The notes: generated from the sequence alone by a model not told the origin. A stretch of 41,406 bases of DNA from a virus (IMGVR_UViG_2623620416_000002:105253-146658), one strand, 5' to 3'; counted from the stretch's first letter, positions 6,761-16,934 are shown. Numbers and translations are program-made.

Positions 6761-6793
6761 GCGTAGCAGTGTCAGCACTTAGTGGGGTGCTGA
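6761..6793 (-). repeat. Hairpin + GACACTGCTACGC element, copy 1
   Basis: Minus strand: TCAGCAC-cccactaa-GTGCTGA-CACTGCTACGC. Confidence 0.9.
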
Positions 6794-6805
6794 GTAGGGA
6801 AATAG

Positions 6806-6832
6806 AAAACGGACCGCATTGCTGCAGTCCGT
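6806..6832 (-). terminator. Intrinsic terminator after the OmpA-domain gene
   Basis: ACGGACTGCA-gcaa-TGCGGTCCGT then TTTCTATTT on the minus strand. Confidence 0.8.
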
Positions 6833-6862
6833 AAAGGAGATACCGTCCGTGGATGTATGAAC

Positions 6863-7549
6863 TTAGAACTCGTAACCAACACCAAAGTTTAATTTAGGAC
6901 TTCGTTTAATATCTATACCAATCATAGGAACTATTCCATTGTCGAATTGGTATTGATACATTGCAGCAGGAATGTAATTCTCTTCGATTGCAGCTTCACC
7001 AATAGCTTTAGATCCTGAAGTATAAGACTTAGTCTCATTGTTTACTACACCTTGATGAACAAACACAGACACAATATGTTTCTTAATCTTAGTTTTCTCA
7101 ACTACTTTTTCAACGACTTTTTCTTTCTCTTCACACTTCTTTGCTTCAGATATAACAGCAGTTGTAGTTCCAGCTTTTGATTTTACAATCACTACAACAC
7201 GTCTGTTCTTTGCATATTCTTCATCAGTAGTTCCAGTAGTTAACAGCTCAGACTTACCTTTACCAACAGATGTAATCTTAGATTTGTCAGCGCCAAACTT
7301 AACTAATATGTTTACTGCTGATTTTGCTCTAGCTTCAGAGAGCTTTTGATTATAAGCAACTGAAGCTCTTTGATCTGTATGTCCTTCAACAGATATACTA
7401 ATCACTTCTTTATCTTTAATTTGTTCGTTATAAACCTTTTCTAATTCTTTGATTAGCTCAGGCATAGGAACATCGCTTGCAGTCTTAAAATGCTGGCCAG
7501 CATTTGCAATACTAGCCATCATTATGATTAACATTAATAGATATTTCAT
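6863..7549 (-). CDS. OmpA-family peptidoglycan-binding domain protein with signal peptide
   Basis: Signal peptide ending ANA; ISVEGHTDQRASVAYNQKLSEARA...KITSVGKG...NRRVVV is the OmpA_C signature; C-terminus ...GVGYEF. Confidence 0.9.
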   Translation of the reverse strand: MKYLLMLIIMMASIANAGQHFKTASDVPMPELIKELEKVYNEQIKDKEVISISVEGHTDQRASVAYNQKLSEARAKSAVNILVKFGADKSKITSVGKGKSELLTTGTTDEEYAKNRRVVVIVKSKAGTTTAVISEAKKCEEKEKVVEKVVEKTKIKKHIVSVFVHQGVVNNETKSYTSGSKAIGEAAIEENYIPAAMYQYQFDNGIVPMIGIDIKRSPKLNFGVGYEF

Positions 7550-7559
7550 GTTATGTCCT

Positions 7560-8690
7560 TTAGTTGTGTGTTACTTCGTAAATTTTAAGAGCAGAGTTAA
7601 CACCATTTACTGTATACATTTTTCTTCCAATCCAACAGACATGACTGTGTCCATGAGAATCATATTGAGCAACTTCAGAACAGAATATGAATTCATCATT
7701 TGAACCATGATAACAATCACTTCTCATTTTAAATGTTACATTTGAACCTGTATTCCAAACATATACACCAGGAACAAGTAGATGACAAGTGTTTTTAGGA
7801 ATATTTGAAAAGATTACTAAATTAGATGCGTTCACGCCAGCAGGACCTTGTGGACCAACAGGACCTTGCGGACCAGCAACGCCATTTGCTCCGTTAGAAC
7901 CATTTGCACCTGCAGCACCAGTTGCACCAGTATCGCCCTTGTCACCTTTAGGTCCGATCAATCCAGCAACGCCTTGAATACCTTGAAGACCTTGAATTCC
8001 CTGAATACCTTGCGTACCTGTATCACCTTTGTCACCTTTGTCACCTTTAGCACCAGTTGCCCCTGTCGCACCAGTCAATCCAGTTGAGCCTTGAATACCT
8101 TGCGCACCAGTTGCACCAGTTGCACCTTTAAGGTTAGAAATTAAAGTCCATGTACCAGATATTTTCTTATAAAGATTATAAGTAACAATATCGTAATACA
8201 ATTCATTATCAGTTCCTTGAGTGGAAATTGGTACACCTGAGCCTGAAAGGAAATTTAATCCATTCGAGCCATTAGTGCCTTTAATATTGCCTTGCAATAC
8301 CCACACTCCAGATAACTTTTTATAAATGTTAAGAGTAGTTTTATCTAAGTAAATTTCATTTTCAACACCAAATGAATTAGCAGGTAAACCCGTATTAAAG
8401 AAAAAGTTTAATCCATTTGTGCCATTTGTACCATTTAAACCATTCGAACCATTAGCACCTTTAGCTCCGGTTGCACCAGTTGCGCCAACAGCTCCGGTTG
8501 CACCAGTATCACCCTTGTCGCCTTTATCACCTTTATCACCCTTGTCGCCTTTGTTTCCATCAACACCATTTGTACCATTTGTACCGTTGATGCCGTTTTT
8601 TCCGTCTTGACCGACAACAGTCGTTTCTGTTTTTTCTGGTGCACAGGCACTGAGACCTAGAACAACCAGAACTAGTAAAAGCTTTTTCAT
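7560..8690 (-). CDS. Collagen-like lipoprotein
   Basis: Lipobox LSAC; long Gly-X-Y runs (GDK, GAT, GIQ); two internal GxP...G..NE.Y.D..T.N.YKK.SG.W repeats; AGGAG RBS. Confidence 0.88.
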   Translation of the reverse strand: MKKLLLVLVVLGLSACAPEKTETTVVGQDGKNGINGTNGTNGVDGNKGDKGDKGDKGDKGDTGATGAVGATGATGAKGANGSNGLNGTNGTNGLNFFFNTGLPANSFGVENEIYLDKTTLNIYKKLSGVWVLQGNIKGTNGSNGLNFLSGSGVPISTQGTDNELYYDIVTYNLYKKISGTWTLISNLKGATGATGAQGIQGSTGLTGATGATGAKGDKGDKGDTGTQGIQGIQGLQGIQGVAGLIGPKGDKGDTGATGAAGANGSNGANGVAGPQGPVGPQGPAGVNASNLVIFSNIPKNTCHLLVPGVYVWNTGSNVTFKMRSDCYHGSNDEFIFCSEVAQYDSHGHSHVCWIGRKMYTVNGVNSALKIYEVTHN

Positions 8691-8736
8691 TAACACTCCT
8701 TTTTTATTATAATTAAAACTATCTTCAGAATAAGTT

Positions 8737-9237
8737 TTATTTTACTTCTATATTTTCAACACATGTTTTTGATGTCAATGGCATTGAAGCAACAATGTTT
8801 TGCAAAGAGAAATTAAAGAGTTCATTCATATAATACGAAGTGTTGTACGAGTTTAAACTAAAAATATAAGGATCCATAATGGATGTTGGAGGGTATTTAT
8901 GCTCAACATGATCTCTGTTTAAATCACAATGACCAAGCTCATGAGCTATTAGTTGATATCTAGATCCTTCATCCAAATTATCCCAGTAAGAAGGATCAAT
9001 TACTATTTGTCTTTCGCCGGAAGACCATCGAGTGCATAAACCAACAGTTGAGCCATCTAAGTCTTTAAACTGAATAGGTATATCTCGATGTAAATTAGAG
9101 CCTTTAACTAAAACATAATAGTTAATATACTTATAAAACACAGAATTAGTTCCGCTAATAGTTCTCGGATCTTTGTTTAAAAAGTTTTGACCACAAGCTG
9201 TCAATAACAAAAACGATAGCGGTAATAAGTGTCTCAT
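8737..9237 (-). CDS. Lipoprotein metzincin-like zinc metallopeptidase
   Basis: Lipobox LTAC; HELGHCDLNRDH; SIMDP Met-turn; similar to 1734-2258. Confidence 0.82.
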   Translation of the reverse strand: MRHLLPLSFLLLTACGQNFLNKDPRTISGTNSVFYKYINYYVLVKGSNLHRDIPIQFKDLDGSTVGLCTRWSSGERQIVIDPSYWDNLDEGSRYQLIAHELGHCDLNRDHVEHKYPPTSIMDPYIFSLNSYNTSYYMNELFNFSLQNIVASMPLTSKTCVENIEVK

Positions 9238-15739: not shown

Positions 15740-15894
15740 TAATTACCTGCCATGTTGAAGTAATAAGCCTGTAGTTGCTGGTCAGTGCAGAAGTCGAAGC
15801 AGATGAAAGGATAGTCGTTGATGTCCATGCCAGACTTGCGGTAGGCTTCGTTTTGTAGGGCAAACAATAGCTTGATAAGTTCTTGACGGCTCAT
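15739..15894 (-). CDS. 51-aa hypothetical protein (not in track)
   Basis: MSRQELIKLLFALQNEAYRKSGMDINDYPFICFDFCTDQQLQAYYFNMAGN; ATGA coupling. Confidence 0.65.
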   Translation of the reverse strand: MSRQELIKLLFALQNEAYRKSGMDINDYPFICFDFCTDQQLQAYYFNMAGN

Positions 15895-16073
15895 ATAGCT
15901 TCCTCCATATTAAAGCAAAGTTCTAAATCATCATTATTCATAGCCATAGCTGGAATACCTAAATCATGGGCTTTCTCTTCTTTAGCCATTGCTTCAGCTT
16001 TAGTTAAATTTCTAACTAATATTTCATCGGTTTCAAGATTAACTAAGTTCCAGCACTTCATGTTCTTACTCAT
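15891..16073 (-). CDS. Hypothetical protein
   Basis: AAGGAG RBS, coupled. Confidence 0.7.
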   Translation of the reverse strand: MSKNMKCWNLVNLETDEILVRNLTKAEAMAKEEKAHDLGIPAMAMNNDDLELCFNMEEAI

Positions 16074-16270
16074 ATACTCTCCTTTAGGTAATGTGGTTCA
16101 TAGTTAGCAAGGAAATACTCGATCTCATCTAAGGTCCATCCATCGCATGTATCTACTACATCGGTATAGCCTGCATCTCTCATCTTCTGTAGTATCAGAT
16201 TGCATTTATCTTGGTCGGTCATCATATCCTCCGTTGTTGTGATGGTGTGTAGGTTCAGGTATTGCCTCAT
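16070..16270 (-). CDS. Hypothetical protein
   Basis: 66 aa; alternative start after GGAGG. Confidence 0.65.
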   Translation of the reverse strand: MRQYLNLHTITTTEDMMTDQDKCNLILQKMRDAGYTDVVDTCDGWTLDEIEYFLANYEPHYLKESI

Positions 16271-16281
16271 AGTGGGGCTGA

Positions 16282-16331
16282 GCGTAGCAGTGTCGGCTGA
16301 CGACCTGGGTTTCTAGCCCGTCGTCAGCCGA
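16282..16331 (-). repeat. Hairpin + GACACTGCTACGC element, copy 4
   Basis: Minus strand: TCGGCTGACGA-17 nt-TCGTCAGCCGA-CACTGCTACGC-tcAGC. Confidence 0.9.
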
Positions 16332-16349
16332 TTAGGTTGGGTTGTATTA

Positions 16350-16841
16350 CTACCGTTCAATCTCACAGTTAGGCTTAACAGTGAATGAACAAGAGCTATT
16401 CACACCATTAGAGCTATATCTTCCTGGAGGGATAAGAGCCATGAATCCGCCGTTAGTGCTATATACAGCATACAGCTGATTGCCTACACAGAATCCCACT
16501 TCATTGAACTTAGCAGGATAGCTTGTAACACCTGGACAGAATTGGATGGATGTAATTACCGTTCCATCTTGCCCGTCTTTCCCATCGGCACCATCATTGC
16601 CGTCATTTCCATTCGACCCATTTAGTATCAAGTTATTCGTTCCGTCAGTGCATGAGATAAGAGCTCCACCATTTGGAGCAGCAGGGTTAGCAGCGACAGA
16701 GCTTGCAGAGCAGCTTGATCCATCCTTGCCATCAGATCCGTCCTTACCGTCTTTGCCATTCAGTCCATCTTTAGGTTGAGCACAGCCAGAGAGAAGAGTG
16801 ATTACTACAAGTGCACCAAATATAATTACGTTCTTATTCAT
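16350..16841 (-). CDS. Collagen-like lipoprotein (short G-K-D repeats, Cys-containing C-domain)
   Basis: Start re-set to MNKNVI (AAGGAG RBS); lipobox LSGC; GKDGKDGSDGKDG and GNDGNDGADGKDG. Confidence 0.82.
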   Translation of the reverse strand: MNKNVIIFGALVVITLLSGCAQPKDGLNGKDGKDGSDGKDGSSCSASSVAANPAAPNGGALISCTDGTNNLILNGSNGNDGNDGADGKDGQDGTVITSIQFCPGVTSYPAKFNEVGFCVGNQLYAVYSTNGGFMALIPPGRYSSNGVNSSCSFTVKPNCEIER

Positions 16842-16892
16842 TGTTTTCTCCTTCGTTATAATTAAGTATAGGATCGGGCACTGAGCTCCCAA

Positions 16893-16934
16893 GCGTAGCA
16901 GTGTCATGCGCTGGTGTATTACCCAGCGCACAAC
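16893..16934 (-). repeat. Hairpin + GACACTGCTACGC element, copy 5
   Basis: Minus strand: gttgTGCGCTGG-gtaataca-CCAGCGCAtgac-ACTGCTACGC-ttggGAGCTC. Confidence 0.9.

Follow-up and report, generated by a model that had tools for sequence, protein, structure and literature searches.

The stretch of phage DNA considered here (the window: 41,406 nucleotides, positions 105253-146658 of the 146,658-bp parent contig C305) carries five copies of a 13-nucleotide word, GACACTGCTACGC, each standing behind a hairpin, and the question raised by this locus is what such an element does between the small genes of a phage. An earlier note on the window, made from the sequence alone, had listed the five copies and proposed that they are a signal for a phage-specific factor. 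An exact match search found the word at the same five positions, on the minus strand in every case (Table 1), against a chance expectation of 0.36, and none of 100 shuffled sequences attained six matches with up to two mismatches. Together with the T that precedes it, the word forms a 14-mer, TGACAC(T/C)GCTACGC, which we refer to as M14. The repeated hairpin + GACACTGCTACGC element is genuine, and it marks the starts of operons throughout a family of uncultured phages of ~170 kb. Our preferred explanation, to which we assign a probability of about one half, is that the element joins a terminator or insulator hairpin to a bipartite promoter of the phage, in which M14 would be the upstream site of recognition.

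The genes flanking all five copies are co-oriented, on the minus strand, and each copy is intergenic, as the note had said, once true start codons are used: the longest open reading frame (ORF) calls at 6417-6752 and 16350-16940 are too long, and the starts linked to a Shine-Dalgarno (SD) sequence are at 6704 and 16841. A sixth exact 13-mer lies at C305:104472-104484, 781 nt to the left of the window. In total the contig has six exact M14 copies, all on the minus strand, and the rest of the surrounding 3.96-Mb bin has none. The sixth copy, which like the others is followed by the promoter-like box described below, is 61 nt ahead of a tRNA-Val gene and has no significant hairpin. Sites resembling M14 at one mismatch (GACACTGCTTCGC, three times on the contig; window 36334; contig C303) were rejected, as all are coding or featureless.

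A hairpin was present ahead of each of the five window copies, with arms that share no sequence between copies, in agreement with the description in the earlier note. Four of the five folded regions were more stable than their shuffles (z -2.1 to -4.4), the exception being copy 2. The further claim that a T-tract is lacking held for these proximal hairpins, none of which qualified in a terminator scan (T-tract within 0-2 nt of a G+C-rich hairpin), but it did not hold for their surroundings, as canonical terminators with a T-tract stand just upstream of copies 1 and 2.

M14 and the promoter-like box across a phage family

The contig is that of a myovirus-type phage, with genes for a tail sheath, baseplate, portal and terminase, and it also encodes a DnaE-type polymerase, a GroEL-like chaperonin and 19 tRNAs. 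Its G+C content is 38%, compared to 43% for the bin. The closest cultured phage is Myxococcus phage Mx1 (terminase identity 29%), and a megablast of the arm against cultured phages gave short collagen-repeat matches only. Scanning IMG/VR with the 14-mer TGACACTGCTACGC identified many contigs with 2-7 copies, and among the relatives compared the best nucleotide identity to the present contig is 70-79%, in pieces; the CheckV completeness of the partial contigs indicated genomes of ~170 kb. Five complete genomes of 166-177 kb have 3-7 copies of M14 apiece, which share one orientation and are clustered in 10-20 kb of small genes that are co-oriented too; the reversed control gave 0. Over ~1 Mb of related viral loci, M14 occurred exactly 170 times, with one mismatch 10 times and with two mismatches 12 times (0, 1 and 8 in the reversed control), and eight of the ten one-mismatch copies have the identical T->C change.

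The members of this family are deeply diverged, with 28-84% identity between genomes in a sigma-like protein, and M14 is constant across lineages that differ in the softer positions of the downstream box. When sequences were aligned on M14, no further conservation at a fixed distance was found except for a weakly kept AC on its 5' side and a C on its 3' side. In Mx1 the word was not enriched (7 sites at <=2 mismatches compared to 8 in the control), and among the matches listed from 596 Gb of genome contigs there were single occurrences in unrelated bacteria, at chance level. A full-text literature search for the 13-mer, its complement and its RNA form returned no relevant paper. Invariance in the phage family and absence elsewhere in the bin both support the earlier suggestion of a signal for a phage-specific factor. 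M14 can serve as a search word for spotting family members and operon starts in metagenomes, and the data define transcription signals of a widespread, wholly uncultured family of ~170-kb phages from drinking-water and activated-carbon metagenomes, the sources of the sequencing runs that contained DNA of the present phage. No RNA run was among those listed for a 10-kb and a 1.8-kb piece of its sequence.

Two smaller features had been described as accompanying the 13-mer. The mini-stem GCU...AGC is not kept family-wide, its AGC being found in 32 of 130 relatives compared to 11 of 130 shuffled sequences. The continuation GGAGCTC (palindromic GAGCTC) is found in a single sub-lineage that includes window copies (12041-12054, 15409-15422 and 16879-16892) and the relatives L097 and L079, but in only 9 of the 130 instances family-wide; there it stands ahead of a loosely conserved ..G.CC..GC, and it may be a further protein site.

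At a variable distance after M14 stands a second motif, hereafter the BOX, with the consensus mCCGAyhC(T/G)ATAtAtA..yaTrA and scores far above those of shuffled sequence. It follows M14 in 130 of the 233 non-identical matches, and in nearly all of those on family contigs, such that the order of the cassette is gene stop, hairpin, M14, a spacer of 5-80 nt, BOX, SD and ATG. Positions C1, A4 and A9 of the BOX are invariant and G3 and C7 nearly so; the first four positions are C in 71/71, C in 51/71, G in 67/71 and A in 71/71, and T/A-rich sequence follows. The lineages differ in form, with ACCGAWTCGAT in three relatives (G006, G009 and G010) and CCCGAYYCTATA in two others (G007 and G008) and the present contig. 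The promoter-like motif that the earlier note had placed after four of the window copies is the BOX; it was confirmed and found after all five, 14-27 nt past the 13-mer, although its 23-nt matrix scores are weak at copies 1, 3 and 4. The matrix was built from family data, and the contig's own copies were left out for the scan of the contig. BOX-only copies occur ahead of many other genes in the same arm.

The first positions of the BOX resemble the -10 element recognized by sigma-28, the consensus of which is GCCGATAA at -15..-8, with the A at -11 flipped out of the helix (PMC12784957). The BOX has both the CGA and an invariant A where this A-11 is expected. If A4 is set at -11, the predicted transcription start is BOX position 15, where 51 of 71 sequences have an A, and a T stands just before it in 46 of 71. 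An SD-linked start codon follows this predicted start by 15-29 nt in 40 of the 89 instances that have such a start codon. No TAAAG(TTT) -35 element was found at a fixed spacing: the 8 nt that precede the BOX show nothing conserved except a weak T/A preference, and the spacer to M14 is variable. A sigma-70 pattern (TTGACA/TATAAT-like hexamers 16-18 bp apart) was not indicated either, as there is no conservation 17 nt after the TGACA of M14, and sigma-70-type promoters were not enriched in the arm (33 found compared to 41 expected). From these sequence features we infer a role for the BOX as a core promoter of the -10 type, which would be read by the host core polymerase together with a phage sigma fragment.

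In the complete relative G006 (L271:1999-2200), the first M14 and BOX precede an ORF-free unit of ~150 nt that has a hairpin and TTTT at its end, and a second M14 and BOX come directly after it. This unit may be a small RNA gene.

Spacing of the two motifs and the role of the hairpin

The distance from M14 to the BOX is variable in a regular manner, with modes at about 5-6, 13-14, 24-28, 36, 46-49, 55 and 66 nt. A periodogram of 82 non-redundant spacers peaked at 10.25 nt (R = 0.345, p about 5e-4 against a null with +/-5 nt jitter), which is the helical repeat of DNA. Such spacing indicates two proteins on one face of the duplex, and points to M14 being an element of duplex DNA. In the shortest spacing class, in the sigma-28 register, the TGACA of M14 is at -34..-30, the ordinary -35 position. 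The surroundings of M14 are in keeping with a role in DNA. In the G010 lineage, six of seven copies are 4-8 nt past a canonical hairpin with a T-rich tail, and since M14 there, as in window copies 1 and 2, stands past a terminator and ahead of a promoter, little RNA would include it. The first promoter of the G008 arm, which has divergent genes upstream of it, consists of M14 and BOX without a strict hairpin. Based on these observations, M14 is most likely the upstream half of a phage-specific bipartite promoter, situated just past the end hairpin of the previous operon.

The element would then be a composite punctuation cassette at the operon boundaries of an arm of small, accessory or early-type genes. 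Its hairpin would form the 3' end of the preceding transcription unit, as a terminator or an insulator, with selection acting on pairing and not on sequence. M14, or (ac)TGACAC(T/C)GCTACGC with its weak flank, would be a duplex-DNA upstream promoter element and the site of a conserved, probably phage-encoded factor, and the BOX would be the core promoter, a sigma-28-type -10 element for host core RNA polymerase carrying a phage protein with a sigma-28-like region 2. The factor bound at M14 and the polymerase at the BOX would have to face the same side of the helix, and for that reason the length of the spacer could change only by about one turn at a time. We infer the start of transcription at the BOX, the binding of M14 as DNA and the identity of the readers of both motifs. 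The importance of this arrangement is that the spacing rule of an invariant 14-bp upstream word implies a protein partner, and that a sigma-28-like core is tied to a fragment of a phage sigma factor.

Several observations weigh against the composite promoter. Most concern the hairpin, which tracks M14 and not the BOX: a hairpin of <= -8 kcal/mol ends 0-10 nt upstream of 109 of 130 M14 copies, compared to 4 of 20 BOX-only promoters, and in 50 of the 130 the gap is 0, with T-1 within the stem. Only 13 of the 130 M14-adjacent hairpins have a T-tract, even though the same genome has canonical terminators, and the extra proximal hairpin that copies 1 and 2 carry after such a terminator would be superfluous if termination were its only role. 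Furthermore, the sequences behind the periodicity are not fully independent and the BOX matrix was derived partly from the same data. Lastly, the protein proposed below to bind M14 is a candidate only, and host factors may also be its readers.

These same features of the hairpin (its specificity for M14, which it abuts or overlaps, the usual lack of a T-tract and its retention beside a canonical terminator in copies 1 and 2) are those expected if the signal acted at the level of RNA, which we consider unlikely, though the least so of the alternatives. A phage factor would then recognize the hairpin and single-stranded UGACACUGCUACGC in read-through or polycistronic RNA, with the result that either the RNA is cleaved so as to leave a protective 3' hairpin on the upstream message, as at the RNase III sites of T7, or termination is enforced without a U-tract. 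Also in its favor, the sole variant tolerated in M14 is T->C, and homologous hairpins retain their pairing, for example at two loci: CTCGGC/GCCGAG, CTCAG/CTGAG and GCTGAG at L122, and ACCCG/CGGGT versus AGCCG/CGGCT at L127. As these changes are compensatory or produce G-U pairs, they indicate selection at the RNA level. Family-wide, the hairpins could not be aligned, as stem, loop and length all vary. A signal in RNA would not be expected, however, to lie at periodic distances of 10.25 nt from the BOX, nor to be followed nearly always by a promoter-like motif. It would rarely be transcribed where M14 is past canonical terminators, as in one lineage, and the copies that have no hairpin, one ahead of tRNA-Val and one that opens an arm, do not conform to it. 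Neither an Rfam match nor a complement of M14 was found, the latter occurring on the contig only at chance length and in coding DNA.

The simplest way to reconcile the behavior of the hairpin with the composite promoter is that M14 marks the primary operon-start promoters, which would need insulation from upstream read-through, hence a hairpin packed alongside them. No significant association was found between the hairpin and a co-oriented upstream gene, since nearly all M14 copies follow such a gene.

A second alternative, which we regard as improbable, is that M14 is the core of a separate class of promoter, for another holoenzyme or time class, placed in tandem with a promoter at the BOX. 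The number of copies (3-7 per genome, clustered and co-oriented) is like that of the early promoters of N4 or T7. The promoters of the N4 virion polymerase involve a hairpin, and M14 has seven bases, TGACACT, in common with the core of the SP6 promoter. Independent tandem promoters would not be expected to show the periodic spacing to the BOX, however, and there is no conservation at a fixed distance after M14 that could mark a start site. Stems and loops are too variable for a reading of structure as in N4, and the five complete genomes have no phage RNA polymerase gene of a known type: no T7-like polymerase (PF00940) was identified in the contig or in ten relatives, these five among them, and no beta or beta' domains in the five, the only genomes searched for them, whereas the bin gave the expected matches.

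It is very improbable that M14 is primarily a recombination or cassette boundary at which blocks of genes are exchanged between co-infecting phages, by site-specific means or through short homology. The copies do bound blocks of small variable genes, copies 5 and 4 flank a lipoprotein gene, and the PeSL cassettes of T4-like phages have been implicated in such shuffling (PMC4122927). However, only 14 nt and a degenerate BOX are shared between the sites, none of which has a linked recombinase, and the strict link to the BOX, SD and ATG together with the periodic spacing indicates a role in expression. Shuffling, as has been suggested for PeSLs, is more likely a side effect.

The earlier note had also suggested a new small ribozyme. 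A ribozyme that cleaves itself, or a gene for some other structured non-coding RNA, would be in keeping with a hairpin adjoining an invariant sequence but is extremely improbable, given that both strands of the whole window gave 0 Rfam matches at E <= 1 with cmscan, a search which the note had recommended, that only a single helix of unconstrained sequence and a linear word of 14 nt are conserved, with no family-wide mini-stem, and that the copy ahead of tRNA-Val looks functional without a hairpin. Based on the Rfam result, the linear word and this hairpin-less copy, the element is neither a new ribozyme nor a new RNA gene.

Other candidates were rejected. A lambda-type nut or rrn antiterminator, the boxB+boxA logic of the earlier note, does not fit, as M14 is unlike the boxA consensus and precedes the BOX, and in one lineage it is downstream of canonical terminators. 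An integron attC-type site would have conserved core sites within its imperfect palindrome, one site for every cassette and a linked integrase, whereas here the invariant word is outside the hairpin and 5-15 genes separate the copies; no search was made for an integrase. Likenesses to sigma-54, CRP, NtcA, ops and boxA sites were dropped because spacing or strand was unfitting.

Candidate readers and comparable systems

A candidate reader of the BOX is a protein of 526 residues encoded at C305:40011-41591 (L133:11-1591), whose residues 375-493 match region 2 of FliA/WhiG (NCBIfam E 3e-10; 6e-14 and 5e-23 for homologues in relatives). The match scores 40 bits, compared to a curated cut-off of 201, and covers region 2 only. 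The protein lacks regions 3-4 and has an acidic, partly disordered N-terminal extension of ~370 residues. In a predicted model, its best structural matches were WhiG and other sigma factors, weak over the whole chain. It has 227 homologues, many on ~170-kb contigs; a search of cultured phages gave one partial match only (22% of the query, 33% identity), to an uncultured 'Bacteriophage sp.' record. The sigma factor of Mx1 has no homologue on the contig. As the gene for the 526-residue protein lies among structural and replication genes, it is conceivable that this sigma is carried in the virion.

A Pfam search of the bin for sigma region 4 gave one sub-threshold match on the phage contig (C305:31247-31324, E 3e-4), within a cysteine-rich protein of 134 residues (C305:31001-31405; L132:11001-11405). 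This protein has four invariant cysteines and a helix-turn-helix that aligns well with sigma region 4.2, and it is present in all five complete genomes at 50-65% identity. The Sigma70_r4 family matched three of six members (best E 6e-5). A PDB sequence search with the profile of the family gave no significant match, and no match was found among cultured phages.

Based on these sequence matches, we speculate that the phage has a split sigma factor in which the 526-residue region-2 protein reads the BOX and the separate 134-residue protein reads M14, though we consider this rather unlikely. As the two parts would not be covalently linked, a -35-type element could shift upstream by whole helical turns. 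We know of no sigma system that permits this, and a split sigma, if true, would represent a novel means of building the specificity of a promoter. If the bin represents the host, which is uncertain, a phage-encoded reader of M14 is more likely than a host regulator, because outside the phage contig the bin shows no excess of M14.

At C305:1123-2550 the present phage has an unrelated ORF of 475 residues without a family match, where G006 and G010 have the gene for an RpoD-like sigma of 228 residues with 40% identity to the sigma factors of the bin.

The closest known analogues, as the earlier note had surmised for the PeSLs, are the PeSL and PmSL elements of T4-like phages, small composite terminator/promoter motifs between variable genes (Comeau et al. 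2014, PMC4122927; Arbiol et al. 2010, PMC2839356). There, as here, a stem-loop is directly followed by a conserved promoter, and the unit is repeated co-oriented between small variable genes in plastic parts of the genome. PmSLs are built on the Mot-box middle promoter, which has an upstream Mot box and a -10-like box (PMC4122927). The present family, whose nearest isolate is Mx1, is unrelated to T4-like phages, its promoter words are neither of the sigma-70 early nor of the Mot-box middle type, its upstream 14-mer is at a variable, helically phased distance instead of a fixed -30/-35, and its stem sequence is unconstrained. What is new relative to the PeSLs and PmSLs is the family of phages, the two promoter words, the variable but phased spacing of the upstream word and the sigma-28-like core, whereas the stem-loop-then-promoter logic was already known.

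The promoter half of the element has separate parallels. In the middle promoters of T4 (MotA box plus sigma-70 -10, with AsiA; PMC2988021) a non-palindromic upstream box likewise supplements or replaces the -35 before a -10-type core. That box is read by a phage protein, as is putatively the case for M14, but it is fixed at -30, compared to about -35 to beyond -90 for M14, and the core is TATAAT and not sigma-28-like; no MotA or AsiA homologue turned up, and no search aimed at them was made. The likeness to sigma-28 (FliA/WhiG) promoters, TAAAG-N-GCCGATAA (PMC12784957), lies in the BOX core CCGAT(A/T), which corresponds to the -10 element with its flipped A, and in the FliA/WhiG-like region 2 that the phage encodes. 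The differences are the lack of a TAAAG -35, the continuation of the BOX as C(T/G)ATA and not AA, and a phage protein that is without regions 3-4 and has an N-terminal extension of 370 residues. In the late transcription of T4 (gp55, gp33 and the clamp), there is also a phage sigma with region 2 only, a -10-only core and an upstream function provided by other proteins. The present system differs in that it shows neither sequence homology to gp55 or gp33 nor any sign of dependence on the clamp, and in having an upstream DNA word.

For the hairpin half, the boxB-boxA of lambda nut and rrn sites similarly place a hairpin beside a conserved linear word, with the differences that M14 is unlike boxA and is upstream rather than downstream of the nearest promoter-like site. 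The early RNase III sites of T7 are hairpins that punctuate an early polycistronic region, but they need no invariant word.

The window copies and their surroundings

Table 1. Positions of the M14 cassettes and related features in the window. BOX distances are counted from the 13-mer and scores are those of the family matrix.
Feature	Sequence	Position	Strand	Remarks
Copy 5 M14	TGACACTGCTACGC	16893..16906	-	
Copy 5 proximal hairpin	TGCGCTGG / CCAGCGCA	16907..16930	-	no T-tract; z -4.4; after stop codon of gene 16944-17408
Copy 5 BOX	CCCGATCCTATACTTAATTATAA	16856..16878	-	14 nt past 13-mer; score 22.8; predicted start near 16863; SD, ATG 16841
Copy 4 M14	CGACACTGCTACGC	16282..16295	-	sole copy with C at -1
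Copy 4 proximal hairpin	CGGCTGACGAC / GTCGTCAGCCG	16294..16330	-	11-bp stem; z -3.9; overlaps first M14 bases
Copy 4 BOX	CCTGAACCTACAC...	16237..16259	-	22 nt past 13-mer; score 9.9; ATG 16225
Copy 3 M14		15423..15436	-	
Copy 3 proximal hairpin	AGGTCCTG / CAGGACCT	15436..15463	-	z -2.1; final base is T-1 of M14
Copy 3 BOX	CCCGATACTACAT...	15374..15396	-	26 nt past 13-mer; score -0.4; first half good, second poor
Second BOX near copy 3		15319-15341		
Copy 2 M14		12055..12068	-	
Copy 2 proximal hairpin/palindrome	TTGCCCATGGGCAA	12070..12083	-	z -0.97
Copy 2 canonical intrinsic terminator	CTTCATTT	12090..12119	-	11-bp stem + the sequence given; just upstream of proximal hairpin
Copy 2 BOX	CCTGAAACTAAAAAC...	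12005..12027	-	27 nt past 13-mer; score 12.2; ATG 11996
Copy 1 M14		6761..6774	-	
Copy 1 proximal hairpin	TCAGCAC / GTGCTGA	6772..6793	-	z -3.0; overlaps TGA of M14
Copy 1 canonical intrinsic terminator	TTTCTATTT	6809..6832	-	10-bp stem + the sequence given; upstream of proximal hairpin
Copy 1 BOX	GCCGATACAACAT...	6714..6736	-	24 nt past 13-mer; score 3.3 on 23-mer; core GCCGATAC intact; ATG 6704
BOX-only promoter-like sites without M14		13098-13120, 14804-14826, 15030-15052	-	each directly ahead of SD + ATG

The supposed early arm in which the cassettes are found also encodes two proteins with collagen repeats (window 7560-8696 and 16350-16841), of which one has tail-fiber-like PHROG matches and the other is lipoprotein-like. 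Because these proteins sit inside the arm, it may not be purely early.

One of the 19 tRNAs of the phage, at C305:4459-4534, has the anticodon CTA of an amber suppressor (tRNA-Pyl according to ARAGORN), which raises the question of whether TAG is read through in some genes. The large ORFs of the window have a normal reading under table 11.

At the head of the minus-strand arm there are ~400 nt without an ORF (window 17480-17900). This region has TTTCCTATAA and ACTAAATAAG twice each, CCTAATAGG/CCTATTAGG in inverted orientation and several G+C-rich palindromes, and it has the look of origin iterons or of a regulatory hub. The window also holds paralogous genes for proteins of ~155-170 residues (16944-17408, 12214-12726 and about 4434-4919), which have 70-74% DNA identity to copies in relatives, and two of these three genes terminate right ahead of an M14 cassette.

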